Shown here piece after piece: positions 24,001 to 45,742 of a DNA stretch of 64,000 bases. This stretch comes from Clostridia bacterium (GTDB taxonomy: Bacteria > Bacillota > Clostridia > Christensenellales > UMGS416), in the NCBI GenBank assembly GCA_016938675.1, contig JAFGUF010000016.1:2792-66791 (forward strand), in the 5' to 3' direction. The first letter of the stretch is position 1; the number at the start of each line of letters is the position of its first letter. The notes beneath the pieces are model-generated. The model did no database searches, was not told where the DNA came from, and saw only the letters and a program-made list of their open reading frames with translations. A program made the translations under genes and the position numbers.

Positions 24001-25295
24001 CAGCCAACATTGGTCATCTTGTGCTTACAAAAATCGATGAGGAATCCCTTGCTCCACTCCAGGGCGCAACATTTGAGCTAATTGATGCAAACGGAACAGT
24101 AGTGGATGCACAGGTGACAGATGCCGACGGCCATGCAACATTCGAATTTGTATTCTTCAACAGAGATTACTGGTACAGGGAAAGCATACCGCCATACGGC
24201 TATTCCGCTGATACAACTACCACTACATACTTCACAATAGATGGAGCCGCAGCCATAGATGAGGGCGAGAATGACCCCGACAGGACAGTATCGCCTGACG
24301 CCATTACAAACTCAGCTAATCCTATAACGGTTCAGTTTATGAAGTATGCAGAGGATGGAACAACAGGCCTGCAGGGAGCGTCATTCGCGATATATGACGC
24401 TGCCGACCCAGCTGCCGTAGTGGCGATAGCTACATCGGATGCTACAGGCTTGGTAACATTCAGCGACCTTCCTGCTAATAGAACATATAATATATCAGAA
24501 ATAGCGCCTCCGCTCGGATATTTGCTTGATACAACAGTGCTGACAGTTGCAGTAACAGTCGGTGATATACCGTTTGTTCCTACTCCGTCAAGCATTACAA
24601 ACGTTAGAGACGCTTCAGCACTAAGCTCAATAGTATTTACAAAATACGCAGAAGACAGCACAACGCCGCTCGCAGGATGTGTGTTTGGTGTATATCCTGC
24701 CGCATTCCCAACTCTGCTTCTGGCTACAGCCACATCTCAGGCGGACGGAAGCGTGGAGTTCTTGAATGTGCCTGCCGGAGACTATGTGATACGAGAAATA
24801 TCCACTGTAAGCGGATATGCTTTGAGTACCGAGGAGCTTACAGTAACTGTTGGCACAGCAACAGGAGCGTATGCAACTACGCCAGCGTCCATGACAAACT
24901 ATCTGGATGGCTCTGTAGAAGTTCAGGTTCATTCAACCTTCTCACTAAGCGGGATGAGCTTCCGAGTAGGGCTTTACTCATACCCAGGTGGTGCATTCGT
25001 ACGGCAGCTCAATTATGTAAACGGAAGCCTTACTAATTTCACAAACCTGCCATTCGGTGCATACTCTGCTCGGATAATGCCAAACGCATACGGACTGATA
25101 GGAACATCGCAGAACGACACCATAACAATCTCCGAAAGCCACGGACATGTCGATATTTATCTGACGCGCAACCCTCAGACAGGAGACAGGACAGCGCCTA
25201 TCAGATACATCTTAGCGGGCATTTTAATTCTTTTCTGGATGATATTTGCTGGCTTATATATAAGAAGGTACTACAAAAATAAATCCATTTGTTAA
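21009..25295 (+). CDS. Large cell-wall-anchored adhesin: collagen-binding-type (CnaA-like) repeats plus CnaB/SpaA-type domains, NPQTG sorting signal
   Basis: Signal peptide. Five repeats with a Y-I-x-W-x-(hydrophobic)-x-(hydrophobic)-N signature (YITWTLDIN, LIYWQIDVN, YIDWELVIN, YITWRFQVN, FIDWVVTIN). Three domains of the type LVLTKIDEESLAPLQGATFEL. C-terminal NPQTG (25170-25184) followed by a TM helix and a basic tail. Confidence 0.8.
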   Translation: MKKAFVVLTLTFVILISQFFGIGLHLQTVQAADLTGTASINDFVENLVLTQISPNDTQPLGNDVPKNGDFRMTYSFRIPQNSGMRDEDFFYLDLPSYVHVPVNVMDVAIIDSSYNYHVLDVSMMQGAGTGGLDAIRVDFTSDLETQTSNYEFTGEFWFEASFDETEVGTGGPITIDFDSGRVSDPISILVDFEADPPPQANFSKTNNYSSSNPNALFDATDHRHYITWTLDINSNNVDMGDNIVIEDVIDTTWMEIWPDMTDPINPVYVNQTVGSAAYTENYDSATNTLTITFTEAVTDQQVFTYQTAVLTSAYIDRLSSNNTTLSITNDAEIIFPNSETIESNDSSISYALDVINKSLDESVVTGGIDYTNRLIYWQIDVNPNNYIIDGAYVTDSIPSDFTMIDSSIRYEFLTSGTVYTGGSFDATVNYSNVGQDYQFNLGDISEPITITFTTEYSDDIYYTQTNESYTNTAYFHPPGTNINSTRDSQGVGFNTEVITKTSTGSDYTNVEPAYIDWELVINPNASSTAVSLTDIYVVDTIPTGLILYDPTNDGDYSDAFTLNRSITGEVADASISYNTSTNEIIIDFDTDDTRSLSDVQISDYNAANDPDIGRDTISERYEISFRTIVAPGYEYYYKQNDNTTFTNRAEYESYNAGAGTDTASRTLSPQILLKDYMNYDYNTHYITWRFQVNRDDNDIYNPYFIDYIPEGLKYVDGTFRLFRGSTSVPLDAFGGYMTYTEHDPVIPNPENTSLNRSGTIEYTFFPRIGDPGYSAANFITDDYYIYFETEFVDLDILSENHLGDGVTSDVDVSNVAYLLHDQDHPTIIIQDNETDSFTSSVIEKSSSYSTGNQFIDWVVTINKNQIDIYGPNPDPYPANSYIGPVIYDTLQEGLVLDLESIVLYNATVASNGTVTHDPADIVPFNIEQVTYDANTRNLTFEFPNTINTCYQMTFTTYISSGYRGPFTNTASFHALTGEPDDESDEQDVLFATGGGYAAANIGHLVLTKIDEESLAPLQGATFELIDANGTVVDAQVTDADGHATFEFVFFNRDYWYRESIPPYGYSADTTTTTYFTIDGAAAIDEGENDPDRTVSPDAITNSANPITVQFMKYAEDGTTGLQGASFAIYDAADPAAVVAIATSDATGLVTFSDLPANRTYNISEIAPPLGYLLDTTVLTVAVTVGDIPFVPTPSSITNVRDASALSSIVFTKYAEDSTTPLAGCVFGVYPAAFPTLLLATATSQADGSVEFLNVPAGDYVIREISTVSGYALSTEELTVTVGTATGAYATTPASMTNYLDGSVEVQVHSTFSLSGMSFRVGLYSYPGGAFVRQLNYVNGSLTNFTNLPFGAYSARIMPNAYGLIGTSQNDTITISESHGHVDIYLTRNPQTGDRTAPIRYILAGILILFWMIFAGLYIRRYYKNKSIC

Positions 25296-32323: not shown

Positions 32324-32398
32324 TCCTCAGTAGCTCAATGGTAGAGCACACGGCTGTTAACCGTGGGGTTACAAGTTCGAGTCTTGTCTGGGGAGCCA
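32324..32398 (+). tRNA. tRNA-Asn (anticodon GTT), CCA encoded
   Basis: TCCTCAGTAGCTCAATGGTAGAGCACACGGCTGTTAACCGTGGGGTTACAAGTTCGAGTCTTGTCTGGGGAGCCA. Anticodon loop CT-GTT-AA, cloverleaf pairs check by hand. Confidence 0.9.
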
Positions 32399-32406
32399 AC
32401 TTAATT

Positions 32407-32440
32407 CATCCGAACTTTTTAAGTTCGGATGTTTCATTTT
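32407..32440 (+). terminator. Terminator of tRNA-Asn
   Basis: CATCCGAAC-TTTTTAA-GTTCGGATG followed by TTTCATTTT. Confidence 0.7.
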
Positions 32441-32524
32441 AAGTTTATGCCACACATAGCTGTGTGTAGCAGTTCTATTTAAAAAAAGGGATGTTTCTTA
32501 AGTTTGTAGTTTGAAAAAACGAAA

Positions 32525-33295
32525 TTAACACAAATTATATAAAAACTTCAAAACTATCGCATTAAATTCGATAGGGTTATCCATATTAAGCAAGTGATGC
32601 GCATTCGAAATAATATTGAACTGTGATTGATTTATTTCTTTATTAAATCGTTTTCCTTGAGAATGTGTTTGTTTGTTTTTGTCACCAACAAGTATAAGTG
32701 TATTTACTTTTAAATCTTTTAACTTGTTCAATGAAGAATAGCCTGTTACAGCATTCATTACCTTTCTTGATTCTTCAATACTATAGGCTGACATAGCCAT
32801 CTTTATATATTCAGAACTTTCAGAACTACCCTTACCATAGCTTTTTGCAGAAAGTTTTATCAATTGCTTTTGAGTAGTCAATTTCATTAAAGAGTTTGTC
32901 ATGTTTGTTAAAACATTATTAACAAAACTATCTCTTGTGCCATACGACGTTTCAGCAAGTATTAGTGCATTAACCAAATCAGGATAATTTAAAGCTATCT
33001 CCTGTGCTATTATACCACCAAATGAATGACCACATAAAACAAATGTATATATGCCATTAGATTTTAATGCATTTACCACACATTTCGCAATTTCAGATAT
33101 GCTGTATTCTTTTAGGATTATATTCTTTGATTCTCCATGACCAGGTAAATCTAATGTTACAACTTTAAATGATTTACTAAAAGCATTTATTTGATGTTTC
33201 CACATGCTAGAATCCACTAATGCACCATGAAGTAAAACTAGTGCTTCACCTTCACCTTTTATATTGAGCCTTATTGTTTTTTCAGTTATTTCCAT
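32525..33295 (-). CDS. Alpha/beta-fold hydrolase
   Basis: LVLLHGAL, DLPGHGES, nucleophile elbow GHSFGG, late H in NAHHL. Confidence 0.75.
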   Translation of the reverse strand: MEITEKTIRLNIKGEGEALVLLHGALVDSSMWKHQINAFSKSFKVVTLDLPGHGESKNIILKEYSISEIAKCVVNALKSNGIYTFVLCGHSFGGIIAQEIALNYPDLVNALILAETSYGTRDSFVNNVLTNMTNSLMKLTTQKQLIKLSAKSYGKGSSESSEYIKMAMSAYSIEESRKVMNAVTGYSSLNKLKDLKVNTLILVGDKNKQTHSQGKRFNKEINQSQFNIISNAHHLLNMDNPIEFNAIVLKFLYNLC

Positions 33296-33331
33296 TTTAA
33301 TTCTCCTCGTATAATATTAGTTGTAATCACT

Positions 33332-33934
33332 TCATTTATAATAATTTGCCCTTAAATTATTAATTAATTGCTTTACGTCTTTTTCTATTTCTGCAAAATC
33401 CAATGGATGTATTCTTAATTTTTTTGCCAAATATCCTTCGAACATATTCACAATAATATCATATAGTGTATTTACATCATCAGGATTTCTAAACTTTGAT
33501 GTATCTATCGCACTGAGGAGTTCCTGTTTATTGGTCAATATTAAACTAGCTTTTTTATCTGCTATTTCAGAAACCACTTCCTCACAATCCTCAAAGTAAA
33601 CATTAATGACAAACTGGTAAATGTATGGATAAACACTAATTAACGCTATACGTGTTTCGATTTCACGTTCAATTATATTAAAGAAATCATTACTTGAAGT
33701 ACGATATTGTGCCTGGATCTTTTTTAAGTCCTCAACCGCTAGATTATATAGATAAAAATATAGCTCCTTTTTATTTCGAAAGTAGTGAAATAAAAGTGAT
33801 TTTGATACATCTCCCTCATCAGCGATATACTGCATCGATGTTTTCCTATATGACTGCTGTGAAAATGCTTTATATCCTGAATTAACAATCTGATTTTGCT
33901 TTTCTTTTGATAGGTTATAGAATTTATTATTCAT
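33332..33934 (-). CDS. TetR/AcrR-family transcriptional regulator
   Basis: HTH region TSMQYIADEGDVSKSLLFHYFRNKKELY. Start set at MNNKFY (a G-rich SD lies 6 nt upstream). Confidence 0.8.
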   Translation of the reverse strand: MNNKFYNLSKEKQNQIVNSGYKAFSQQSYRKTSMQYIADEGDVSKSLLFHYFRNKKELYFYLYNLAVEDLKKIQAQYRTSSNDFFNIIEREIETRIALISVYPYIYQFVINVYFEDCEEVVSEIADKKASLILTNKQELLSAIDTSKFRNPDDVNTLYDIIVNMFEGYLAKKLRIHPLDFAEIEKDVKQLINNLRANYYK

Positions 33935-34040
33935 AATATGCCCCCCCATTAACCGTATCAGTCAACACAGTGATTGTATCATGATTGACCATTTTGGAGA
34001 AGACCTAATATTATTGAATATGAGGTAACAAATGATTAAT

Positions 34041-34150
34041 AAAAGTGCGGATGGTACATACAATGGGGAGCCATAAAGCGATTTACTAATTAGTAAGTCG
34101 CTTTTTTGTTTGTCTAAAAATGTAAAGTTTATGCCACACATACTTATGTC
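34041..34150 (+). repeat. Module copy 1: pseudo tRNA-Asn 3' end (GGGGAGCCA at 34065-34073), terminator hairpin, AAGTTTATGCCACACA
   Basis: AAAAGTGCGGATGGTACATACAAT-GGGGAGCCA-TAAA-GCGATTTACTA-ATT-AGTAAGTCGC-TTTTTTGTTTGTCTAAAAATGTAAAGTTTATGCCACACAT. Confidence 0.8.
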
Positions 34151-34306
34151 TAGATTCTTTATTTGCATTGTATATATACGACAATTTATTTTTTGTAACA
34201 TCTTTTTGACACAGTATAACCTAAATCATAATTTGTCTCAAACCATGCTGTCATCTCAGATGTGATAAAAAGAAAATAAAATATAGATTATAATTATTTG
34301 TTTATC

Positions 34307-34867
34307 CTAATATGGTAAATTTATATTATGATTCCGTTTATTCTTTATAATAATGTCCATATATTGGAATTCCGGCGCAAATAAATGCGCTTTTAAAGAG
34401 GTACAGAGAGAATACTCACGTGGATTTCCATAACTAGTCCAACTACTTTCATAAACTAAATCATTTTCAATAAACTTACTCAAGCATGAGCCATAATTTG
34501 TAGATAGAATACTATCTAGACTATTTTTTGATTCCCAGCATTTAATATCCTCAATTTGCCCTTCTGCCATCCATCTATCACCAAAGGCAACTATTTTTTC
34601 TTCGATAATATATGCGATAAAAAGTTTCTCGATATCGTCAAATTCTCCGGATTTCCACATATCTTCGAAGGTGAAACTGCTTAATTTTCTGTTATTCTCA
34701 ACGATTGAGTGTAATTGTGGCAGGAGCATATCACTAGCATTTACATATTTTCTAAATATGTCTATATCTAGCTCTAACGTTTCTTCTGTATAATTGCCGT
34801 TTCCTAAAGTAGCCAATAAATCGAATGCATTATCAACATTCACATTATATAGTTCCTCACTTTTCAT
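34307..34867 (-). CDS. Hypothetical protein (186 aa as listed); the reading frame stays open upstream to 34975 and is probably the detached C-terminal part of the TIR gene
   Basis: No family recognised. The upstream in-frame extension encodes FDISSDDEAVILYYIIERKIRKVKKGDIISW, whose YYIIERKI motif recurs as AYIIEEKI inside the ORF. Confidence 0.55.
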   Translation of the reverse strand: MKSEELYNVNVDNAFDLLATLGNGNYTEETLELDIDIFRKYVNASDMLLPQLHSIVENNRKLSSFTFEDMWKSGEFDDIEKLFIAYIIEEKIVAFGDRWMAEGQIEDIKCWESKNSLDSILSTNYGSCLSKFIENDLVYESSWTSYGNPREYSLCTSLKAHLFAPEFQYMDIIIKNKRNHNINLPY

Positions 34868-34899
34868 CCAAGAAATTATATCGCCTTTTTTTACTTTCC

Positions 34900-35493
34900 T
34901 TATTTTTCTCTCAATAATGTAATATAATATAACTGCTTCATCATCAGATGAAATATCAAAATATCTTGTGATTTTTCATAGTTATGACTTATTATTCTTT
35001 TTGAAATATAAGTTTCATAGCGGTTTTTTAGTTTTGAAATCTCGGCTGTAACTATACTTGCCTTGCACTGCTTCACCTCAAAAACATTCCTTATCGAATC
35101 ATATATATAAGAAATATCACCATCATTATTTAGTCTACGAATCTTGTATTCACTATTCAAAAACCCATACATGTTTTTTTCGGAAACTTCAGGAAGTGCA
35201 ATAGGAATAACCAAGACTTTATCGCAAAACCACATTATACCCGCTTCATTAAGACAGTATGCGCTTTGATAATACTCTAGAGATAAAATGGCAATGTTAA
35301 TTGAACTGTTTTTAAGCTTGGATTTTACTTCTGTATTTATTCTTTCGTCAACATCATTACCAGGCAAAGATGAACAAAACATATATTCACGCGGGATGCC
35401 CGTTCCAATAAGAAAATCGAAAAGCATATCAGCGATTTCTTTATCCATAGAACGATGACTAATAAATACAACTGATTCTAATTCACATTCCAT
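34900..35493 (-). CDS. TIR-like domain protein (197 aa as listed; C-terminal ~20 aa probably out of frame)
   Basis: VVFISHRSMDKEIADMLFDFL..., SINIAILSLEYYQSAYCLNEAGIMW: a TIR-type beta-alpha pattern with a conserved Glu. Confidence 0.65.
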   Translation of the reverse strand: MECELESVVFISHRSMDKEIADMLFDFLIGTGIPREYMFCSSLPGNDVDERINTEVKSKLKNSSINIAILSLEYYQSAYCLNEAGIMWFCDKVLVIPIALPEVSEKNMYGFLNSEYKIRRLNNDGDISYIYDSIRNVFEVKQCKASIVTAEISKLKNRYETYISKRIISHNYEKSQDILIFHLMMKQLYYITLLREK

Positions 35494-35609
35494 AATAATT
35501 GCTCCTATTTTTTTACATTTATTATAGCATACTATAATGATATATGATATTCAATCCCTTCAATATTACTATATTTTCTTCTTTAAATATATTCTTAAAC
35601 TAATAGTAT

Positions 35610-35690
35610 AAAAACGTTCGGATGGGACATACAGTGGGGAGCCATAAAAGGTCATTCGAATATTTCGAATGACCTTTAGTGTTATTTGTC
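35610..35690 (+). repeat. Module copy 2: pseudo tRNA-Asn 3' end (GGGGAGCCA at 35636-35644) plus a different perfect hairpin
   Basis: AAAAACGTTCGGATGGGACATACAGT-GGGGAGCCA-TAAAA-GGTCATTCGAA-TATT-TCGAATGACC-TTTAGTG. Confidence 0.75.
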
Positions 35691-35874
35691 CCAAACATGT
35701 ACTATACGTATACACTTTACGAAAGACGCTTTTTTATCTTCATCTATCTTTGAACTATGACACACTAAAAAGTTTTGAAAGTAAAGTGTTAACGCTAAAT
35801 TTGCTTGCTCTTTCTGTTATGTATGGCATTTTTATTTGTAAATTAGTTCTTTTACTTTAAAAAACAACTAATAC

Positions 35875-36621
35875 TTAATGAAATTCATCAAACAATTCTA
35901 TCAAATATACTTCATCATTAAAAAGGGCATACACCACAATTATATGGAAATTCTCGTCAGCAGCTAAGCTTAAATACATAATATACTCTCCGTCGCCATA
36001 TTTAATAAATCCACAAAACTCTCCATTCTCGTATAGACTTGTATCAGTTTTATTTATCTGCTCTTTCGTTAAGCCTAGAACAGATAATACTTTTTCTTCA
36101 CTATCGCCAACCCTTATACTCATAGGTCCTATATAGCTTTCATCATATATATCTATATGCCCTACATAACCATCGTCATATATATTGCCGGTATTTGACA
36201 CAAATATCACTATACCAAAATCATAATAGTAATATATATACCATCCGTTATCCCCGTGCATGCCTCCTTCAGTATACCACCTATCTATATAATTAGGTTT
36301 CCCATATAAGCTCTCTATATCCTGAGCTGACATCTTCAACTCTATATCACCTAAAGAAACATTTTCAAAGTCTATCGGGTTATCAATATCAAACTCCTTT
36401 TTCGGCTCCACTTCTTCAACAATAGGCTGTACAGTTGCATAAGGTGTATAAGTTACATGGAGAGTAGGCTCAAGGGTAATTTCAGCCAATTGTACTGCAT
36501 TAGTTGGAGCTATGGTAGCACCTGATTGAATTGAATTTAACTCATTTGCTTTACATCCTGAAAGAGTTAAAAGCAAAAACATATTGATAATTCCAATAAT
36601 AATTATGTGTAATTTTTTCAT
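35875..36621 (-). CDS. Putative lipoprotein, unknown function
   Basis: MKKLHIIIIGIINMFLLLTLSGC lipobox. Start set at the second ATG (GAGG lies 9 nt upstream). Confidence 0.6.
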   Translation of the reverse strand: MKKLHIIIIGIINMFLLLTLSGCKANELNSIQSGATIAPTNAVQLAEITLEPTLHVTYTPYATVQPIVEEVEPKKEFDIDNPIDFENVSLGDIELKMSAQDIESLYGKPNYIDRWYTEGGMHGDNGWYIYYYYDFGIVIFVSNTGNIYDDGYVGHIDIYDESYIGPMSIRVGDSEEKVLSVLGLTKEQINKTDTSLYENGEFCGFIKYGDGEYIMYLSLAADENFHIIVVYALFNDEVYLIELFDEFH

Positions 36622-36702
36622 GTTGCATAACCTCAATATTTACATAATATAGGTTATATATAAAATGTCAAGTTTTTGAAACTACCCGCAATTTCATTGC
36701 AC

Positions 36703-36798
36703 AAAAAGTTCGGATGGGACATACAGTGGGGAGCCACAAAACGATTTACTAATTAGTAAGTCGCTTTTTTGTTTGTCTAAAAATGTAAAGTCTATGCT
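36703..36798 (+). repeat. Module copy 3: near-identical to copy 1 (GGGGAGCCA at 36728-36736)
   Basis: ACAAAAAGTTCGGATGGGACATACAGT-GGGGAGCCA-CAAAA-CGATTTACTAATTAGTAAGTCG-CTTTTTTGTTTGTCTAAAAATGTAAAGTCTATGC. Confidence 0.8.
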
Positions 36799-36930
36799 CT
36801 GCCTTTATTTCAAAGATTTATTGAGACTTTTTCTCAAAGCGGCGCAGATCTTGTACATATTTTCTACTTACCTCTTTACCACTTATTATTATCATGATAT
36901 AATTATTACCATAAAAATCGGAGGTATGAT

Positions 36931-37293
36931 ATGGATTATTCTTATAGTTATGAAGCAAGCCCATTTATGACATTGGTTTGGCTTGCAGTTGCAGTACTTG
37001 GCATCGTTGCAATGTGGAAATTGTTTACTAAGGCTGGTGAACCTGGCTGGGCTGCTATTATTCCCTTGTATAACGCATATGTATTATTTAAGATTACATG
37101 GGGAAACGGTTGGAAATTCCTTTTAATGCTAATCCCAATAGTTAATATAGTTATTGCAATAATGACTATGGTTAAGCTTGCTCAAGCATTCGGAAAAGAC
37201 GGCGGATTTGCAGTAGGACTTATATTCTTAAGTATCATTTTCTATTGCATTCTTGCTTTTGGCGATTCTGAATACGTAGGAGTGCCTACATAA
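36931..37293 (+). CDS. Small multi-pass membrane protein (DUF5684-like)
   Basis: WKLFTKAGEPGWAAIIPLYNAYVLFKITWGNGW matches my recollection of DUF5684. It is the only plus-strand gene in the array. Confidence 0.55.
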   Translation: MDYSYSYEASPFMTLVWLAVAVLGIVAMWKLFTKAGEPGWAAIIPLYNAYVLFKITWGNGWKFLLMLIPIVNIVIAIMTMVKLAQAFGKDGGFAVGLIFLSIIFYCILAFGDSEYVGVPT

Positions 37294-37403
37294 TTTTATT
37301 ACTAAATAAAATGTAAACAAACTTAAGCACCTATGAACAAATCATTCTAGGTGCTTTTATATTTAACCTTTTATTAAGCTAAAATATTTAATTATGTTCA
37401 ATA

Positions 37404-37518
37404 AATAGTGCAGATGGGGCATACACTGAAAACCCGCAAGTGATTTATTAATTAGCAAGTCGCTTTTTTATTTGCTTATAAAATAAAGTTTATGCCACAC
37501 ATTATGTGTGGCATTTTT
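37404..37518 (+). repeat. Module copy 4: decayed pseudo-tRNA end, terminator hairpin, perfect ATGCCACACAT hairpin
   Basis: AAATAGTGCAGATGGGGCATACACTGAAAACCCGCAAGTGATTTATTAATTAGCAAGTCGCTTTTTTATTTGCTTATAAAATAAAGTTT-ATGCCACACAT-T-ATGTGTGGCAT-TTTT. Confidence 0.7.
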
Positions 37519-37531
37519 CATATTACTTTTT

Positions 37532-38458
37532 CTATTCTTTAATCACTACTAATTTAAACTTAATAAACAATATCGGCGCATAATACACAAACCACATTGC
37601 TGCAAAGAAACTAATGACCACCGAGATTAATCCTTCTATCCATATAATGCTTGTAAGCTTGCATGAATACTTTAAAATGAGCGGGTACAGCGCAAATGAA
37701 ACACCGCATGCAACAAGCTTTATAAGCTGCTTCCACCATACAACTTTTACGTCAAATTCGCCATATTTTCTAATCTTTATCATACCAATGGCAAAACCAG
37801 TGAACAATCCCGCCAGCTGAAAGGTCGATGACAAATCATCTATACCATTACCATCACTGTATAAAGCATATGAAACTATAGCCATTAGAACAAAAACTAT
37901 TGGCAGTGCGGCGGCTAAAGTATACTGCATCCATTTTTTTAAATTAAAAAACTTCTCATGAAAGGGCTTTTCCAATTTGATAAATAGAACAACTACTAAA
38001 GTCCCAAGTAAAAATCCAGCAAGCACCTGGCTGGGAAAATGGCTATCCCGATATATCCTTGATATGCCAATGCCTAATATCATAAGTATCGAAATCACCC
38101 ACATAAATCTTTTCTTCAACGTATGGCTAGTGTATGACCAAAAAGCCACCGCACTCAGCGCATGTCCGGATGGCATACCATAGCCGTCGATTACAGTTAT
38201 TCCCTCAGCTATGTGCCTGGGCCTTGGCATATGAAAAACCAATTTCAGTGCTGAAGCCATCAGTCCGCTAAAGGGCACCAGCAAAGTCAGCTTGGAATAT
38301 TTACTAAAGTTTATGCACCATATCAAAACGATTATGACCAAAAAATACGTGTTATCTTTGCCGATTACTGTCAAGGATTTCATCAGTAGACTGAAGCCAT
38401 TGCCTAGAGATTTAATTGCATCATAAATAAAAACGTCTAAATCAAACATCTTTTTCAC
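37532..38458 (-). CDS. PAP2-family membrane phosphatase (BcrC/UppP-like candidate) with extra C-terminal TM helices
   Basis: PAP2 motifs KLVFHMPRP, PSGH and SRIYRDSHFPSQV. Confidence 0.7.
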   Translation of the reverse strand: MKKMFDLDVFIYDAIKSLGNGFSLLMKSLTVIGKDNTYFLVIIVLIWCINFSKYSKLTLLVPFSGLMASALKLVFHMPRPRHIAEGITVIDGYGMPSGHALSAVAFWSYTSHTLKKRFMWVISILMILGIGISRIYRDSHFPSQVLAGFLLGTLVVVLFIKLEKPFHEKFFNLKKWMQYTLAAALPIVFVLMAIVSYALYSDGNGIDDLSSTFQLAGLFTGFAIGMIKIRKYGEFDVKVVWWKQLIKLVACGVSFALYPLILKYSCKLTSIIWIEGLISVVISFFAAMWFVYYAPILFIKFKLVVIKE

Positions 38459-38494
38459 TCCTTAAATTTAATTTTGTTTTCTGGTTGGCTTAAT

Positions 38495-38932
38495 TCATTT
38501 TTTACTATGTATGTTAAACAGTAATACAGCAAGTTCTATGAAAACACCAAATACAATACAAGATACGGCAATATAGGGTGCATAGCTTCCGACAACATTC
38601 CCACCCATAAACATTACTATCATAATGAAAAATACTACATAATTCATCATAGCAAAGCATATCTTTGATTTTATTTTTATTGCGTTGGATTTCGGAGTGG
38701 TTAAGTAAAGATTCTTTGTATCTAGTCTCATATCCTCAATAATATGTACTAGGCCCATTGTGACTATCAATATAAAGGGCAAAAGAAAATTTAGTATAGA
38801 AATCGTTATAACTAACTCTTCATGATCCGGGTCAATCAACAGAAGCAATACGCCGCAAAGCATCATCATACCAACTAATATTAATATAATCCTCTTGCTT
38901 CTCTTTATTTCAAATCTCAATAGGTTAATCAT
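38495..38932 (-). CDS. Small ABC-2-type membrane protein
   Basis: 145 aa, four hydrophobic helices, overlaps the ATPase gene by 8 nt. Confidence 0.5.
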   Translation of the reverse strand: MINLLRFEIKRSKRIILILVGMMMLCGVLLLLIDPDHEELVITISILNFLLPFILIVTMGLVHIIEDMRLDTKNLYLTTPKSNAIKIKSKICFAMMNYVVFFIMIVMFMGGNVVGSYAPYIAVSCIVFGVFIELAVLLFNIHSKK

Positions 38933-39617
38933 TTTTCATAACCTCCAAATATATGCTCTTTATGGAACTGCCGTTTTCAGACCGCAAGGTATCACAGTCC
39001 TCAAAAAGCATGACTTTACCGTTCTTTATAAATAATACCTTGTCAAAGAGCCTCTCCACCTCATCTATAAGATGGGTCGCAAGAATAATGGTCACATCCT
39101 CCGAGATACAGTCAAAAATTGTATTCATCACTTGCTCTCTTGAGAGTGTATCTATACCACCTAGCGGTTCATCCAGCAGAAATACTCTAGCCCTTCTTGA
39201 TAATACCAGTCCCAGTCGCAGTTTCTGCAGCACTCCTTTAGAAAGATCAATTATGCTTTCATTGTCTTTAAGTCCAAACTTTTCTTTCATTAATATAAAC
39301 TTCTCTTTATCAAAATCATAAAATAAATTATCATAAAACTTTTCAATATCTTTTACCTTCATCCATCTGTAAAGATTATTATTCTCCGGAAAATAAGATA
39401 CTATAGATTTTGTATATTCTCCGATTTGTCTTTTATCAATATATATATTTCCGTCATCCTGCTTCAGCGAACCTGCCAATATATTCATCAGCGTACTTTT
39501 CCCGCTCCCGTTCGGTCCTAAAAGACCCAACACTCTCCCCTGCTCTATCTCAAAGCTAAAGTCACAAAGTGCCGTTTTTTGATTATATTTTTTATTCAGG
39601 TTTTTTACATTAATCAT
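38925..39617 (-). CDS. ABC transporter ATP-binding protein
   Basis: Walker A GPNGSGKST, signature-like LSKGVLQK, Walker B VFLLDEP. Confidence 0.85.
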   Translation of the reverse strand: MINVKNLNKKYNQKTALCDFSFEIEQGRVLGLLGPNGSGKSTLMNILAGSLKQDDGNIYIDKRQIGEYTKSIVSYFPENNNLYRWMKVKDIEKFYDNLFYDFDKEKFILMKEKFGLKDNESIIDLSKGVLQKLRLGLVLSRRARVFLLDEPLGGIDTLSREQVMNTIFDCISEDVTIILATHLIDEVERLFDKVLFIKNGKVMLFEDCDTLRSENGSSIKSIYLEVMKND

Positions 39618-39987
39618 TTATTTCACCTTTATTTAGATATTGTTCTATTGCTTTCTTTATATCAAAATCACTCAAACCCATTTTACTCATCTTGTCTGTA
39701 AAATCGGATATCTCTTTGCTTACAAATTCATCAAGCAGCTTTTTTATCTTTACTTTGTCATCCGTCACAAACGAACCCATTCCCCGTCTGGTATGGCATA
39801 ATCCTTTTTGCTCTATTTCTCTATATGCCCGTTGTATAGTGTTCGGATTTACCTGAAATTGGTTGGCCAAATCCCTCACAGAAGGCAATTTATCGCCTGG
39901 CGAGAGCCTTGAGGATATTATCTCGTTCTCAAGCCACTTTACCACCTGAATATAGATAGGAATGTTATTGTCAAAATCGCAATTCAA
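39610..39987 (-). CDS. GntR-family (YtrA-subfamily size) transcriptional regulator
   Basis: IPIYIQVVKWLENEIISSRLSPGDKLPSVRDLANQFQVNPNTIQRAYREIEQKG, 125 aa. Confidence 0.85.
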   Translation of the reverse strand: MNCDFDNNIPIYIQVVKWLENEIISSRLSPGDKLPSVRDLANQFQVNPNTIQRAYREIEQKGLCHTRRGMGSFVTDDKVKIKKLLDEFVSKEISDFTDKMSKMGLSDFDIKKAIEQYLNKGEIND

Positions 39988-40015
39988 AATATACCGTCCT
40001 AATTTAGCTCTGTAT

Positions 40016-40059
40016 TACTGTATTAAGATTATAATACAGTAGTGGTGTCGTTTTGTCAA
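40016..40059 (-). promoter_or_regulatory. Promoter with overlapping perfect 10-bp inverted repeat (candidate GntR operator) for the GntR-ABC-PAP2 cassette
   Basis: Minus strand has TTGACA (40059-40054), 17 nt, TATTAT(AAT). Inverted repeat TACTGTATTA (40016-40025) / TAATACAGTA (40032-41) brackets the -10. CTGTATTA is also tandemly duplicated. Confidence 0.55.
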
Positions 40060-40126
40060 TACTGCTTAGTTTATATGTGCTTAATATATCGTCTATATAA
40101 ACTACAAAAGATATATAAAGAAAATA

Positions 40127-40240
40127 CTCCGGATTCGACATACTATTGGGGGCAATCATTATTCACTAGAACTTTTTATTTAATAATTATTAGTGGATGG
40201 ATTATAAAAATCTTATGCCACACATTACGTGTGGCATTTT
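40127..40240 (+). repeat. Module copy 5 (most diverged): T-loop-like GGATTCGA, GGGGGCAATCA, AT-rich spacer, ATGCCACAC hairpin
   Basis: CTCCGGATTCGACATACTATTGGGGGCAATCA...CTT-ATGCCACAC-ATTAC-GTGTGGCAT-TTTC. Confidence 0.55.
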
Positions 40241-40314
40241 CTATTTAAATCTAATAAATGCAATCAAATTTTTTGTTGCATTAGCAAGCCTATTTGAATT
40301 AGAACAAAACCCAT

Positions 40315-41379
40315 TTATTTACGCAAAATCCGCAGTATTCGGTTATAAACTGCTGTTGCCACCATCACTTTTGTTCCACCCTGTGTATCAAAAAGATCAA
40401 TTAAGGGTGTCCCACCATTTGTATTAACAAACTGGACTACAACAGTATCAATATCTTCTTGATAATAGGCAATACTGTAGTAACCCAGTACCCAGCCGGT
40501 ATGCCCGTATTCATAAATCGAAGAATAAATCGCCTGCTCATTATCATTAAATAATGAGCCGTCATTCAGCGCTCTAATGAATGAACCTACATCCTCCGCT
40601 GTAGCCACCATACCAGTGTCAATATCCTTGAAATCATCTTCTGAGCCAACGTAATATCCACTCATCACATCATTAATATCCACTTCACTCAACGAAAAAT
40701 AGGTGCTTTCCAGCCCCAGTGGTTTCAAAATCTCTTCTTTAATATATTCAGTATGGCTATATCCTAAAGCTTTATCAAGAATACCACTTAGCAACAAGTA
40801 GTTTGTATTTGAATAACTATAATTCTCATCCGGCGCAAAAGCTGCTGGCTTATCAAAAATTAAAGCTAGAGATTCCTCAATGGTTTTTGATGATTCATCC
40901 CACCTGAATCCAGGCTGATCTGTATAATTTAATAAACCACTACGGTGCTGTATCATCATTCTTACAGTAATCCGCTCTGCGTATTCAATTCTACCCAAAA
41001 GTTCTGGGAAGTAATCAGTCAGCTTATCATCTAGGGATATAAGCTCATCATTTACCATCATAGCAGCCGCAGCGGCGATATACAATTTGCTGATACTGCC
41101 AATTTTGAAATACGATTGCGAATCAGCTGGAATTTGATTATCCCTGTCTTTCCATCCTGCAGTGTAAAATTCTGGCGGCTGACCAGCCTCATCCACATAG
41201 ACGATGATTCCATCTAGCCCAAGTTTGATTGATCTATCAACTTCCTCTTGGATTGTATCAGGCAGTGGTGTCATCATTGCCCAGAGCCCATCCCAAGGAG
41301 GAAACCCTACAATACAAGTTATAGCAAAGATAATCATTACAATTCTTAATACTAAAACTATTTTTTTCTTTTTATTCAT
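40315..41379 (-). CDS. Serine hydrolase of the class C beta-lactamase / penicillin-binding family, N-terminal membrane anchor
   Basis: S-x-x-K (GSISKLY), Y-S-N (YSYSNTNY), H-T-G (YGHTGWV). Confidence 0.75.
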   Translation of the reverse strand: MNKKKKIVLVLRIVMIIFAITCIVGFPPWDGLWAMMTPLPDTIQEEVDRSIKLGLDGIIVYVDEAGQPPEFYTAGWKDRDNQIPADSQSYFKIGSISKLYIAAAAAMMVNDELISLDDKLTDYFPELLGRIEYAERITVRMMIQHRSGLLNYTDQPGFRWDESSKTIEESLALIFDKPAAFAPDENYSYSNTNYLLLSGILDKALGYSHTEYIKEEILKPLGLESTYFSLSEVDINDVMSGYYVGSEDDFKDIDTGMVATAEDVGSFIRALNDGSLFNDNEQAIYSSIYEYGHTGWVLGYYSIAYYQEDIDTVVVQFVNTNGGTPLIDLFDTQGGTKVMVATAVYNRILRILRK

Positions 41380-41778
41380 TTATAAACTCCTTTCAAGCTG
41401 CCTTGAATAAGTAAAATATCTATTCTGTTTAATGCCGTCCACCTAATTTTATTGGATGGTATGTTTCTATAATAAATAGTACTTTAGTAATTATTATATT
41501 AAGACACAAAGAGTTGTTAATCAAGCAATATTCAATTAACCCAACTATTTTCGGCCTTTGTTAGTGATTAATTATATAAACCATTGTCTTTGATTCAACA
41601 TAATTTTGTACAGCATGAAAATCAGCAGCCACATTTAGTATATGTTAATTTTAAAAGAATCTTGATTATAGAACCTAAATCTTGATTAAGTAATATACAC
41701 CGCAATGCCTAGTATATAGATAGCAGTGGGCAGTGTGACAATATTCAACAAAATCAGAAAGAAAAGAGGCGAAATCCT

Positions 41779-42065
41779 ATGTTAAAAGACTTTGGAAGAA
41801 ACTAAAAGAAACTGGAGAAAACGCACTTGATAAAACAAAAAAAGTGGCAGAGATAGCAAACCTGAATTTGAAAATCAATAAGAGTGAAAGCGACTTGGAA
41901 AAGGCAATGCTAGCTTTAGGAAAGAAGTTCTACTCAAATGTACAGGGAACGCTGCCGGAAGAGTATAAATCCGAATTCGGTACAATAGAAAAAATAAAAG
42001 CGGATATTAGCGAAATGAAGGTAAAGATTGCCGAATTGAAAGAAGACAAGGAGACAGAAGAATAA
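41779..42065 (+). pseudogene. Small coiled-coil protein gene with apparent 1-nt frameshift near the 5' end (or a GTG-initiated 73-aa remnant)
   Basis: ATG at 41779 (AGAGG upstream) reads MLKDFGRN then stops. The frame of the listed ORF is open from 41739 and reads ...LWKKLKETGENALDKTKKVAEIANL... One extra A in GGAAG would join the two frames. Confidence 0.35.
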
Positions 42066-42327
42066 AAAACCAACACTATCATTAACCAGCAGAAATAATC
42101 TACTGGTTAAATACTCTGTACGCTTGAATATAGTTTGCACTAGCTTGCTGGTATTGAGCAATAACCATTGATAGGTACTGAAGTATAATAAATATCTCTT
42201 AATAATATTATGTAGGCTGAGAAATTATACCCCTAGATATAATTCCGTTTGCACTACACTTTTGATGTTGCGCTGAAATTGCTTGTGTTCTAAAAATCAT
42301 TGCAAGATTGCCAAGATAATCACCAGC

Positions 42328-43788
42328 TTACTTGTTGTTGCTTAGGTTATTATTTGTTTGATATCTCATTGTTGTAAAGTAGGCATCCTTATTCTTTCTA
42401 TATTGAAGTTGTGGAATGATCAGCAGAAGCGGAATTAAAACTAACGGCACAATAATTCCTAAATAACTCGATAGAACCATAGTACCCGCCCATAGAGTTG
42501 CCCAGTCAAACATCCCCATCCAGCCTATGATTTGCTTCGGCCCTACAAGATAGGTCAGTACCCAAGCTGAACCAAACACCTGAATTAACCCCGCAAAAAA
42601 AGGAATAATTGCTGCCGCTTTGCGTCCTCCAGCCTTATTTGCATACACCGCCAGCGTGCCATTATCAATAAATAAACAAATGAATCCCGAAAGTATCAAT
42701 ACAGGGGATTTAAGCAATATTAAAGTAAATATAGCAATTAACTGACCAATCAATCCGAAAATAAACCCGTAAATAGGTGCTTGAATTGAGTAGCTAAAAG
42801 TCACTACACAATCAACAGCCGGCACTGAGCCCTTTAGAATTTTATCCGAAATACCTTTAAATGACTGAGTAAGCTCAGCAACAAACATTTTTACACCCAT
42901 CAGAAGAATAGTTATATAAACTGCAAAATATGCACATGTCTCCCATACATATGTTGCAAAATAGTAATTATCCGAATCATATGCAAAGTTCTCTTTCCCC
43001 AAAAGCAGCATAATTGTACCAACGAATACGGTCATTATCAATGCGTTTGCGACAACTGAATCGTTAAGGATGGATAAGAAACCCGGTGCCTTTATTTCAT
43101 TAACATCATGGCTTTTGTTGCCAACTTTACCGGCAATCTTGTATGCCAGCCATATGCCAAGCATTTGCTGATGGCCAACCGAGAATCCTTCACCATTTGT
43201 AACGTCCTGTGTGGGCTCTACAATCAGATTGCTCATCACTGACCAGTAAGTGCCAACCAAAAGCCCAGTTGTAATGAGAAGGGGCGCAGAGACTGCATCG
43301 CCGCCTGTCCCTTCTATCACCCAGTATAGTGCCCATAGCATTACTGCTGACTGCATGTACATTATATGCCCTGTAATAAACAAGGTTCTGATTTTTGTGA
43401 ATTTGCGTAACGCAACAAGAAAAATATTGAACGCAAACGCAATCATCATTACATATCCCACGAAAGCAAGCGAATCAACGGAATCCAGAAACTCAGTTGC
43501 CGAGGTTTGACCATAGTACGGATCAATGACCAATGCTGTAATACCATACTTAGAAGCTAGCAGGTCTATAATTGGCCTGAATACTCCTACAAGCCCGCTG
43601 GTGCCAATCTGCAGTATTTTAAATCCTACGTATGTCTTGATGAATCCGGCAAGCGCTTTGTACCATTTCTCCTTAAGCATCAAATATCCGATAAATACAA
43701 CTGTGCCCAGAAGCAAAGGTGCCTGTCCCAAAAACTTATTGAAAAAACTTAAAAATCCTGTAGCTAACCAATCCATAAAAGCCCCCAT
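42328..43788 (-). CDS. PTS ascorbate-type (SgaT/UlaA family) EIIC permease
   Basis: About 480 aa, polytopic, N-terminus MDWLATGFLSFFNKFLGQAPLLLG...IKTYVGFKILQ typical of UlaA. The true start may be the ATG at 43776. Confidence 0.7.
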   Translation of the reverse strand: MGAFMDWLATGFLSFFNKFLGQAPLLLGTVVFIGYLMLKEKWYKALAGFIKTYVGFKILQIGTSGLVGVFRPIIDLLASKYGITALVIDPYYGQTSATEFLDSVDSLAFVGYVMMIAFAFNIFLVALRKFTKIRTLFITGHIMYMQSAVMLWALYWVIEGTGGDAVSAPLLITTGLLVGTYWSVMSNLIVEPTQDVTNGEGFSVGHQQMLGIWLAYKIAGKVGNKSHDVNEIKAPGFLSILNDSVVANALIMTVFVGTIMLLLGKENFAYDSDNYYFATYVWETCAYFAVYITILLMGVKMFVAELTQSFKGISDKILKGSVPAVDCVVTFSYSIQAPIYGFIFGLIGQLIAIFTLILLKSPVLILSGFICLFIDNGTLAVYANKAGGRKAAAIIPFFAGLIQVFGSAWVLTYLVGPKQIIGWMGMFDWATLWAGTMVLSSYLGIIVPLVLIPLLLIIPQLQYRKNKDAYFTTMRYQTNNNLSNNK

Positions 43789-43983
43789 ATCTCTATTTAG
43801 CAGACCATCTTAATCCATTGATTATAGCAATACGCCTTATGTATGTCTACTGATTTAGGGTGGCTGTTCGGCTTCCGCCTTTCTACACGTCTGATTTTTA
43901 TAATCAAATGACCGGCAGCAGTATATCTTTTTGCCTTGCGGTGTTATAGTATATATTCATTATCTAACGACAATATTTCTCGG

Positions 43984-44538
43984 CTACCTTATCCACTCGT
44001 AAACATCCATATTCCGCTTAGGCTTATTGAAAACTTTCTCCGGATTTTCATATCCCAGACATACAGCAAAATATGGTTTGTAGCCATCCTTCAGGTTCAA
44101 TTTTTTACGGCTCTCATCAAGCTTAAAGTAATGATCTATCAGCCCAACCCATACAGCACCAATACCTAGGCTTGTTGCTGCCAGCATCATATTCTCTATT
44201 GCAGCACTGCTGTCTTCAACCGGGGAATACGCCTCTTGGCTTGCAGATACTATAATGACTGTTGGCGCCTTGTGCAGAACATGATATCTTTCATTGCTTC
44301 CGAATTTTAATATCCAGTCTTCGTCTGATTTGCGCATTTCCTCTTTTGCTTTTAGATTCATGTGATCTATCAAATCTTCATTCTGTACAATTGTATAGTA
44401 TACAGACTGTGCATTGTGGCCGCTTGGTGCTTGTATCCCCGCCTCAACGATTGATTTTATATCATCATCAGAAATCTGTTTTTCTAAAAACTTTCTTACG
44501 CTCTTTCGTTCATATATATTTTTTATTACTGAATTCAT
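43984..44538 (-). CDS. Nitroreductase-family protein
   Basis: RKSVRKF...APSGHNAQ...; 184 aa. Confidence 0.8.
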   Translation of the reverse strand: MNSVIKNIYERKSVRKFLEKQISDDDIKSIVEAGIQAPSGHNAQSVYYTIVQNEDLIDHMNLKAKEEMRKSDEDWILKFGSNERYHVLHKAPTVIIVSASQEAYSPVEDSSAAIENMMLAATSLGIGAVWVGLIDHYFKLDESRKKLNLKDGYKPYFAVCLGYENPEKVFNKPKRNMDVYEWIR

Positions 44539-44539
44539 T

Positions 44540-45028
44540 TTATTTATCCTTCTCTGTCAATACTTTTTTATTATTTGCTCCGTTTTCCAGAGCTTCGGCA
44601 ATGCCGTTTATTTCCTTAACCATTTCTTCGCCTTTTTCATAGCTTATTATTTTTGAGTAGCTGTGATGCAGCTTTCTCCAGTGTTTTACTATTTGCTCCT
44701 GGATGTCTTCGCCCTCCTTAGTAAGGCTTATTATGCTGTTCCTTCCTGTTATGGTTCGCTCTACATATCCGTGATACATCATCTTGTCTACCAATCTTGT
44801 CAAAGTAGACTGAGCAATAAATAACTCCTCTGCCAGCGCCTTTGATGAAATGCCCGGATGATCCTTAAGCTCCATCAATAAATATGCGTATGTCGGAGAA
44901 AGCCCTAAGGGTTTAAATGTTTCTTCTGCCAGTTTTGTTATTACTCTGTTTAGGCGGTTAGATGCAAAATATAAACAACAGTTTTTTACTTCATTGGCCA
45001 ATTTCTTTGCCTCCTTATAAATGTTCAA
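44540..45028 (-). CDS. MarR-family transcriptional regulator
   Basis: LGLSPTYAYLLMELKDHPGISSKALAEELFIAQSTLTRLVDKMMYHGYVER. Confidence 0.85.
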   Translation of the reverse strand: MNIYKEAKKLANEVKNCCLYFASNRLNRVITKLAEETFKPLGLSPTYAYLLMELKDHPGISSKALAEELFIAQSTLTRLVDKMMYHGYVERTITGRNSIISLTKEGEDIQEQIVKHWRKLHHSYSKIISYEKGEEMVKEINGIAEALENGANNKKVLTEKDK

Positions 45029-45036
45029 TTCAGTTC

Positions 45037-45453
45037 TTATGTTGGCGGCATTACAGTTGCCGTTCCCTTAAGAACCAATATTCCTTCTTGATTTGTGCAG
45101 ATCGTCTCAAGCCTTACACGATTTTTTTCTTCAATTAATTCAACAACCTCAGCTTCTGCCAATATAGTATCTCCTATTCTCACAGGGGCAATAAACTTCA
45201 GATCCTGAGCTAAGTAAATAGATCCCGGCCCGGGAAGCTGCACTCCCAATACCGCCGAAATCAGGCCAGCCGTCAGCATTCCATGAGCCACTCTACCCTC
45301 AAATATCGTATTCTTTGCTGCTACTTCGTTTACATGTGCTGGGTTAATATCTCCTGTAATTCCTGCATAAAGATAAACATCTGACTCTGAAATCGTCTTT
45401 TGAAAGCTAGCTTTGTCGCCAATTTTTATCTCCTTAATGGTTTTCCCTTTCAT
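45037..45453 (-). CDS. MaoC-like (R-specific enoyl-CoA hydratase-type) dehydratase
   Basis: ISESDVYLYAGITGDINPAHVN...GRVAHGML. Start set at MKGKTIKEI (GAAGGAG lies upstream) because the longer ORF covers the promoter. Confidence 0.8.
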   Translation of the reverse strand: MKGKTIKEIKIGDKASFQKTISESDVYLYAGITGDINPAHVNEVAAKNTIFEGRVAHGMLTAGLISAVLGVQLPGPGSIYLAQDLKFIAPVRIGDTILAEAEVVELIEEKNRVRLETICTNQEGILVLKGTATVMPPT

Positions 45454-45489
45454 TTTAATGCTCCTTCTTGCGGACTTTCGATTTATTTG

Positions 45490-45530
45490 CTTGTACATAC
45501 AAGTATATTTAATATATTGGTTTTTATCAA
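45490..45530 (-). promoter_or_regulatory. Promoter (TTGATA-17-TATACT) with adjacent palindrome CTTGTA-N2-TACAAG (candidate MarR operator)
   Basis: Minus strand has -35 at 45530-45525, -10 at 45507-45502 and a palindrome at 45490-45503 overlapping the -10 and +1. Confidence 0.5.
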
Positions 45531-45742
45531 CTAGTTTCTGTTGCTTATTTTCACTGTAACCGAAAAAATTTATCATTGGTAATGCAGCTAAATGCCATAA
45601 AAATAGTGCTTCGTAATAAACATAAATTTTATTCTATTTATATATAACTATGTCTGAAAATTTCCGTTCACAACGCTTTCTCTTTACATGAACATACGGA
45701 AATATTATAATATAATAACAGAAGAAGAAGTGAGGAAATAGA

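Follow-up and report, generated by a model that had tools for sequence, protein, structure and literature searches.

How does a row of small accessory genes, spaced by copies of one short sequence, come to stand behind an intact tRNA gene with no recombinase gene among them? The question is raised by a locus in an uncultured Clostridia bacterium, of which we analysed a stretch of 64,000 nt (hereafter the window) and, within it, an array of gene cassettes at 32.4-41.5 kb that follows the gene for tRNA-Asn(GUU). A first-pass annotation, made from the letters of the window, had proposed repeated site-specific insertion into the 3' end of the tRNA gene, with each event leaving a P-core-P' junction. 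We conclude that the array very probably did arise through one site-specific insertion after another at the 3' end of tRNA-Asn, with older junctions pushed outward. The fuller proposal, in which the inserted units were integrase-less mini-cassettes that were mobilised in trans, we regard as somewhat probable.

Modules that repeat the end of the tRNA

The tRNA-Asn gene (32324-32398, + strand) is intact and has an encoded CCA (ARAGORN; Rfam, 69 bits); Rfam found nothing beyond two tRNAs in the window. Upstream of it lie infC-rpmI-rplT and then a gene for a SpoU-family methylase, the nearest homologues of which are only 58-64% identical; the organism itself belongs to an uncultured lineage of Eubacteriales/Clostridia. 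From the end of the tRNA to ~41.5 kb the G+C content is 0.30-0.35, compared to 0.40-0.46 in most of the flanking sequence, which agrees with the shift to AT-rich DNA that the annotation had placed 3' of the tRNA.

We found five modules of ~90-125 nt (M1 to M5), all in the orientation of the tRNA and confined to the 8 kb downstream of it. Each module has, in order, a ~23-nt arm (AAAGTGCGGATGGnACATACA), a 10-nt core (TGGGGAGCCA) that corresponds to the last 10 nt of the tRNA (32389-32398, the attB/attI-like target), an intrinsic terminator and usually a palindrome, ATGCCACACAT-n-ATGTGTGGCAT. Most copies end in AAAGTTTATGCCACACAT-n-ATGTGTGGCAT, a palindrome of 9-11 bp that stands just 3' of minus-strand cargo and scores as a bidirectional terminator. 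Exact copies of the core number four in the whole 64 kb: one ends the tRNA and the others are in M1-M3. The sequence TTATGCCACACA is also found four times, all at this locus, where 0.43 occurrences are expected and none of 100 shuffled sequences reached four. A profile built on 11 internal modules from four species (nhmmer) matched M1-M5 and a tRNA-proximal half-site (32389-32474), all on the + strand, and found nothing better than E ~0.7 in the rest of positions 1-64000; thus, the ordered modules that had been described behind tRNA-Asn are real. The tRNA-proximal match opens at model position 29, which is the core. The arm is 71% identical between modules over 25 nt, whereas the next 25 nt upstream are 34% identical, and identity of the core to the tRNA runs, from M1 outward to M5, 10, 10, 10, 5 and 7 of 10. 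Terminator-like sites are more numerous than expected (12 observed, 3.6 expected), and nine of the 12 are module hairpins.

The half-site has only core and P', the latter at 32399-32474 on the + strand, with the terminator CATCCGAAC/GTTCGGATG at 32407-32431 and then AAGTTTATGCCACACATAGCTGTGTG, a decayed palindrome (nhmmer, terminator scan). M1 (34036-34162; profile match 34040-34162) has its P arm at 34039-34063, an exact core at 34064-34073, a hairpin of the type that we call term1 at 34075-34104 and the motif TTATGCCACAC at 34129, with the right arm of the palindrome decayed. M2 (35605-35700; profile match 35610-35699) has a P arm, an exact core at 35635-35644 and a different hairpin, term2 (GGTCATTCGAA/TTCGAATGACC, 35647-35677), while M3 (36699-36805; profile match 36701-36805) combines a P arm and an exact core (36727-36736) with term1, and matches M1 at 94% identity along 94 nt, up to a point inside the left arm of the palindrome. 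In M4 (37399-37522; profile match 37401-37520) the P arm is followed by a decayed core, TGAAAACCCG (5/10, 37427-37436), a term1 hairpin and a perfect palindrome (37492-37514). M5 (40121-40243, which is also its profile match) has a decayed P arm, a decayed core, TTGGGGGCAA (7/10, 40146-40155), a terminator of decayed CATCCGAAC type and a palindrome at 40215-40237.

An extra remnant had been noted at ~32488-32512. By direct reading, this is a partial second copy of P' (GGATGTTTC-TTAAGTTTGTAG, 32489-32511, + strand; GGATGTTTC..TTAAGTTT), a true partial duplicate of 32427-32451 that lies ~60 nt further downstream; the duplicated segment spans from the 3' arm of the tRNA terminator to the palindrome. 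Perhaps a junction was lost or deleted here and left this copy as a scar.

One part of the proposed module was not supported. The annotation had read a T-loop-like remnant of the tRNA in the arm. We found that the 30 nt upstream of the core match the tRNA, in register, at 5-10 of 30 positions, which is about chance, and that AAGTTCG, the basis of the T-loop-like element, is present in two copies only.

The modules delimit six cassettes of 0.7-2.7 kb, each with one to four genes, whose cargo we identified with Pfam and, for spbK, PADLOC. Cassette A, which measures 1.67 kb core to core (32399-34063), has genes for an alpha/beta hydrolase (32525-33295) and a TetR regulator (33332-33949), both on the minus strand. 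Cassette B has a minus-strand gene for an SpbK-like TIR-domain protein in two open reading frames (ORFs; 34900-35493 and 34307-34867; Pfam TIR_2; PADLOC spbK, 1.4e-23). The downstream frame remains open upstream of its ATG, and the split is probably due to a frameshift in a defence gene or to a sequencing error. Cassette C encodes a putative lipoprotein (35875-36636, minus strand). Cassette D encodes a DUF5684 membrane protein (36931-37293), the only + strand cargo of this array, and has its own promoter-like site and terminator. Cassette E carries minus-strand genes for a PAP2 phosphatase, a membrane protein, an ABC ATPase and a GntR regulator (37532-39987). Cassette F consists of a minus-strand gene for a beta-lactamase-family hydrolase (40315-41379) and its upstream region, to 41510 (Pfam, blastn). 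The gene content given in the annotation, with 10 of 11 ORFs on the minus strand, is therefore correct for the window.

The same locus in related genomes

Comparison of the tRNA-Asn locus among relatives revealed polymorphism both in the presence of cassettes and in their order. In one related species (L009-L011) the site is empty and reads as follows: the methylase gene, tRNA-Asn, a term1-type terminator (AGCGTTTTAC…GTAAAGCGC) and the gene for diacylglycerol kinase (DAGK), with no palindrome and no cassette. This native terminator is of the type found inside M1, M3 and M4 of the window, in which the conserved right flank begins at ~45681 with the DAGK promoter and gene.

Other arrays occupy the same site. 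In another species (L007/L008), term2 stands next to the tRNA, and between it and DAGK come a beta-lactamase-family gene, a module, a VanZ gene, a module and a DUF2247 gene; term2 and the DNA downstream of it, here placed directly after the tRNA in L007, are homologous to M2 and the DNA that follows M2 in the window. The last junction of L007 consists of arm, core and native-type terminator, with the palindrome absent, and reads as the P-core-B' order that would be expected of an attR-like end. L012 has a gene for a 256-amino-acid membrane protein and then a module. L026 has a DUF3795-like gene, a module, a gene for a 494-amino-acid beta-lactamase-family protein, a module, a gene for a 340-amino-acid protein of the same family and a further module; outward, its cores match at 10, 9 and 8 of 10 positions, and in one of its modules (L26_Mc) the core is fused to a remnant of the palindrome. 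Two of the L026 cassettes carry + strand cargo, so that the minus-strand bias, although true of the window, is not a rule. In every species, the tRNA-proximal junction matches the module from the core on (B-core-P'), and the internal junctions are P-core-P'.

Cassettes homologous to cassette F, 78-84% identical in nucleotides (blastn), are present at other array positions in L007 and L026: the beta-lactamase-family cassette ends the array in the window, opens that of L007 and takes third place in L026. We had considered a decayed sixth module to the right of this gene in the window, and rejected it when 41450-41510 proved to be the conserved upstream region of the gene, common to L007 and L026.

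Occupancy also differs between strains of one species. The methylase protein is the same in L012 and L013, and the two share 97% identity along a 1.24-kb stretch that has the conserved palindrome at its end. They diverge 5 nt past the CCA, where their terminators differ, and again past the palindrome, where the cargo differs; thus, the first cassette is not the same in the two strains. Conversely, L013, L017 and L021 show 50-75% identity on the left side of the tRNA gene and 98-100% from that gene rightward over at least 3.1 kb. The shared block encodes an acetyltransferase, an SIS protein and a sugar ABC transporter (L013 1076-4222; L017 7841-13139; L021 6127-11281), and suggests that DNA was very recently transferred between species, with the tRNA as the left border. 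(The acetyltransferase of L021 is split into two ORFs.) An exact-protein look-up with the proteins of the window retrieved the same strain only (SRR13394436/7), in contigs that end at the tRNA and at the M1/M3 repeat.

The proposal of repeated insertion leaving P-core-P' junctions is thus supported by the empty site, by the other arrays, by the difference between strains and by a proximal junction that is free of the P arm.

We searched for a recombinase in the 64 kb of this genome and in the short contigs of its relatives. Pfam detected no integrase, resolvase or transposase domain in the cargo ORFs or small intergenic ORFs of the window array, as the annotation had stated for this region. 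Among the window ORFs of at least 170 amino acids we saw no recombinase, judged by eye, and those that lie beyond the array resemble housekeeping genes. No recombinase was among the genes called in the related arrays, and the five arrays, with at least 14 cassettes, contained no integrase fragment and had intergenic gaps too short to conceal remnants. The modules are confined to the DNA behind tRNA-Asn, in its orientation, in the window and in four related species: there were no copies in the rest of the window or in the non-array part of ~150 kb of related loci. Module patterns gave chance matches only in GTDB representative genomes, JGI metagenomes and IMG/VR, blastn of M4 against plasmid and phage collections gave no match, and no phage, plasmid or integrative and conjugative element (ICE) bearing an attP was found in the collections scanned.

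The genome collections gave a single match, which fell by chance within a coding sequence of a Bacteroidales genome, and we therefore considered whether arm and core might encode protein (…DGTYxGEP*). We rejected this reading: there are in-frame TAG stops in two modules of relatives (L12_Ma and L26_Mc), a start codon is present in M1 alone, variable sites are spread over all codon positions and there is no upstream ORF. The arm and core of M1 do overlap a very short ORF, MINKSADGTYNGEP* (34031-34075, + strand), which has a GAGG ribosome-binding site; this ORF is not conserved in the other modules and is probably fortuitous.

Two further features of module anatomy were noted. The arm (GGATGGnACATACA) and the left arm of the palindrome (TTATGCCACACATA) both contain ATGnnACA.A in direct orientation (34051-34064 and 34129-34142 in M1, and in other modules), and one might speculate that these repeats are binding sites of one protein. 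After M2 (35750-35835; L007 11060-11160) the palindrome seems to be split, CTATGACACAC … ~50 nt … ATGTATGGCATTTTT, and the DNA within and around it (…TTTGAAAGTAAAGTGTTAAC…) is also present in the tRNA-proximal region of L007. This looks like an insertion into the hairpin, or a rearrangement of it.

Two genes of the left flank were also noted. Ribosomal protein L20 (30568-31257, + strand) has 229 amino acids, with a long C-terminal tail of Ala/Lys/Pro/Thr-rich tandem repeats, and is enlarged in relatives too (234-256 amino acids). Further upstream of the array is a gene for a SpaA/collagen-binding-type surface protein of 1428 amino acids with a C-terminal membrane anchor (21009-25295, + strand), whose synteny is kept in all relatives (L007, L009, L012).

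How the array may have formed

From the junctions we infer a recombination pathway, with a circular intermediate, a crossover position and an enzyme that acts in trans, as follows. Cassettes would have entered in succession, through site-specific recombination targeted to the final 10 nt of tRNA-Asn. Each would have arrived as a circle with one ~125-nt attachment region in the order arm-core-terminator-palindrome. Recombination with the tRNA end would restore the tRNA and supply it with the terminator of the incoming cassette, which would also shield the mostly antisense cargo from read-through from the tRNA. The earlier terminator and palindrome would shift outward, to stand behind the arm of the new cassette, and old junctions would then decay. 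Serial insertion of this kind predicts that each terminator type should occur both at the tRNA and inside arrays. The observations fit: term1, term2 and the CATCCGAAC type are each found both directly after the tRNA and within arrays (a fourth type was seen next to the tRNA only, in L013, L017 and L021). For cassettes that have no recombinase of their own, the most economical reading is that the enzyme is supplied in trans; it would come from a helper element or from a chromosomal gene, outside the sequence examined.

Several observations weigh against serial insertion of trans-mobilised cassettes. The case for action in trans is built on the absence of a recombinase from the sequence searched, and it is possible that an integrase lies at the right end of the acetyltransferase-SIS-ABC cargo, beyond the reach of the contigs. 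The near-identical cargo of L013, L017 and L021 could itself reflect chimeric scaffold joins at the 75-nt tRNA in a metagenome from one project. In the window array, the distal junction of cassette F is not recognisable and no P-core-B' (attR) is present. To the right of cassette F, 4.2 kb of non-ancestral DNA (41511-45680) that is missing from the L009 empty site is free of modules; it has a + strand ORF of 73 amino acids and four minus-strand genes, for an EIIC-GAT transporter, a nitroreductase, a MarR regulator and a MaoC dehydratase, at a G+C content near that of the core genome. Furthermore, the beta-lactamase-family cassette is preceded by three terminator types in its three hosts, and thus the terminator does not always travel with the cargo: the crossover may lie at the core or at the palindrome, or terminators may shuffle independently. 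Lastly, the cassettes are diverged between hosts (78-84% identity) to an extent similar to core genes (78%), so that a large part of the array may be old and no longer mobile.

This last point bears on the alternative that survives best, although we consider it rather unlikely: that the cassettes are the stumps of tRNA-Asn-specific elements (islands, integrative and mobilisable elements (IMEs) or prophages), stacked in tandem, that have lost their integrase by deletion and are now fixed. Such an origin is documented for cis-mobilisable elements (CIMEs; PMC5704250), and has been proposed as well for Dehalococcoides ssrA islands without integration modules (PMC3146451) and for tycheposon remnants. 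The decay of the outer cores and the frameshifted TIR gene would suit it, as would a beta-lactamase-family cassette about as diverged between hosts as core genes. What speaks for serial insertion of small cassettes over this origin is the state of the units: there is no fragment of an integrase in any of the five arrays, nor gaps long enough to hold one; both ends are regularly kept (arm at one end, terminator plus palindrome at the opposite end), unlike the outcome of random deletion; and the cassettes are uniformly tiny, with a first cassette that differs between near-identical strains.

We also considered that no dedicated recombinase is involved, and that the locus is a hotspot for homologous recombination, in which the modules, each a conserved insulator made of a tRNA-type terminator and a bidirectional terminator hairpin, provide portable homology. 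Transformation and RecA recombination would add, remove and reshuffle cassettes by exchange between the DAGK flank and either the tRNA or a module, much as in minimal mobile elements. Two anchors, the tRNA with its promoter and the promoter of DAGK, are kept in every species, and modules are 75-94% identical over ~100 nt, with the 94 nt shared by M1 and M3 breaking off inside the hairpin. Moreover, terminators seem to shuffle independently of cargo, and the hairpins are good bidirectional terminators. Nonetheless, we find this explanation improbable. It leaves unexplained why each internal junction fuses a non-tRNA arm to precisely the final 10 nt of the tRNA, and why that arm is lacking from the tRNA-proximal junction alone, both of which serial insertion accounts for by the order B-core-P' at the tRNA and P-core-P' elsewhere. 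In addition, the anchors, at 75-125 nt, are short and have diverged from species to species, and conservation of the arm and of the left palindrome arm extends to their sequence, beyond structure.

Although only ~64 kb of this genome was inspected and AT-rich intergenic terminators look alike, it is highly improbable, and largely refuted, that the modules are a generic genome-wide repeat of the repetitive extragenic palindrome (REP) or terminator type, relics of a tandem tRNA-Asn cluster or a product of chance, given that all copies are behind tRNA-Asn in one orientation (as is not expected of REPs, bacterial interspersed mosaic elements or miniature inverted-repeat transposable elements), that no copies were found elsewhere in the window, in the ~150 kb of related non-array loci or, beyond chance matches, in public collections, and that gene order is not conserved, an empty site exists and the modules contain nothing of the tRNA to the left of the 10-nt core. 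The annotation had named a generic repeat, the decay of tandem tRNA-Asn genes with conserved gene order, and a recombinase within the array as results that would count against its interpretation; we tested for all three and observed none of them.

Precedents and the meaning of the array

The annotation knew of no described system with this organisation. In fact, the organisation has precedents in Dehalococcoides ssrA islands, in CIMEs and in tycheposons. The Dehalococcoides islands are arranged in tandem and bounded by 20-bp repeats of the ssrA 3' end together with a 15-bp motif on the element side; 16 have an integration module and 15 do not, and the latter have been discussed as possible CIMEs (PMC3146451). 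They resemble the array in having tandem units behind a small RNA gene and an element-side motif that is upstream of the repeat and does not align with the gene. In contrast to the array, they target tmRNA, are many kb long and include, in 16 cases, a module with a CcrB-like serine recombinase, whereas here the target is tRNA-Asn, the units are 0.7-2.7 kb, no member bearing a recombinase was found, and each unit brings a replacement terminator and a conserved palindrome.

CIMEs, known from site-specific accretion in the ICESt1/ICESt3 family of Streptococcus thermophilus, have att sites at both ends and no genes for integration or transfer, occur in tandem at the target and can be mobilised by the integrase of a related element (PMC5704250). 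They are deletion derivatives of identifiable ICEs or IMEs with helpers, whereas no parent or helper is known here and the cassettes look like purpose-built compact units rather than deletion stumps. In the tycheposons of Prochlorococcus, successive integrations at one tRNA push older elements inward to the island, with partial tRNA copies and remnants between them (bioRxiv 10.1101/2020.12.28.424599). Tycheposons carry tyrosine recombinases and replication genes, with fragmented integrases among their remnants, and we found neither in the arrays.

In common with tandem islands and CIMEs that target a tRNA, the locus has an intact tRNA gene, repeats of its 3' end at unit boundaries (also in L007, L012 and L026), an empty site in relatives together with strain-variable occupancy, and conserved P and P' arms that are distinct from the flanks of the target. 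A cognate tyrosine or serine recombinase was not present in the sequence searched, and a helper elsewhere is possible. In current terms, the cassettes are CIME-like or satellite mini-islands. What is unusual is the unit size of 0.7-2.7 kb, the lack of an integrase-bearing member in five arrays, and the terminator and conserved palindrome within the module.

The annotation had also compared the array with an integron, and here the functional resemblance holds. As in integrons and clusters of attC sites lacking integron-integrases (CALINs), cassettes of one to four genes without a recombinase are separated by a structured site of ~100 nt, there is one fixed insertion site, and a homologous cassette takes different array positions in different hosts. 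Unlike in either, the repeated core is the 3' end of a tRNA, and the defining parts of an integron are lacking. We found no tyrosine recombinase, and hence no IntI with attI and the cassette promoter Pc, in the array or among window ORFs of at least 170 amino acids. The modules do not show the attC signature RYYYAAC...GTTRRRY: they end in AAAGTGCGGATGG... and ...ATGTGTGGCAT, and GTTCGGA (two copies) violates GTTRRRY. Nor are these promoterless cassettes expressed from Pc, since they have TetR and GntR regulators and promoter-like sites, and five of six are antisense to the tRNA promoter, from which terminators separate them.

Other small modules without a recombinase of their own, such as integrative mobile elements exploiting Xer (IMEX) and the pdif modules of Acinetobacter plasmids, use short recombination sites and a host enzyme in trans. 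On inspection, the array has no dif-like 28-bp (11-6-11) XerC/XerD site, as the centre of the palindrome is 1-3 nt and there is no conserved second arm; a search by eye for dif/Xer-like or loxP-like symmetry around the core or the palindrome likewise gave no convincing two-arm site.

A stronger form of the integron comparison, which we hold only tentatively and think somewhat doubtful, is that a recombinase, chromosomal or from a helper, uses the tRNA-Asn 3' end as a fixed acceptor and the ~125-nt module as the equivalent of attC, for cassettes of one to four genes that never had an integrase. In that case, self-insulated cassettes would be captured, stacked and reshuffled, with each one giving the tRNA a new terminator.

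The cargo is the usual content of a flexible genome: an SpbK-like TIR defence gene, hydrolases, a beta-lactamase-family enzyme, an ABC exporter and regulators. Should the units be immobile remnants of old islands, we would be dealing with a tidy example of an ordinary tRNA-linked variable region. If instead the cassettes are moved in trans, the locus would be a platform for cassette capture in uncultured Clostridia, integron-like in function and made of different parts. It would also mean that gene accretion at a tRNA gene can shrink to single-gene units, and the order arm-core-terminator-palindrome would provide a sequence signature by which to find the recombinase responsible.

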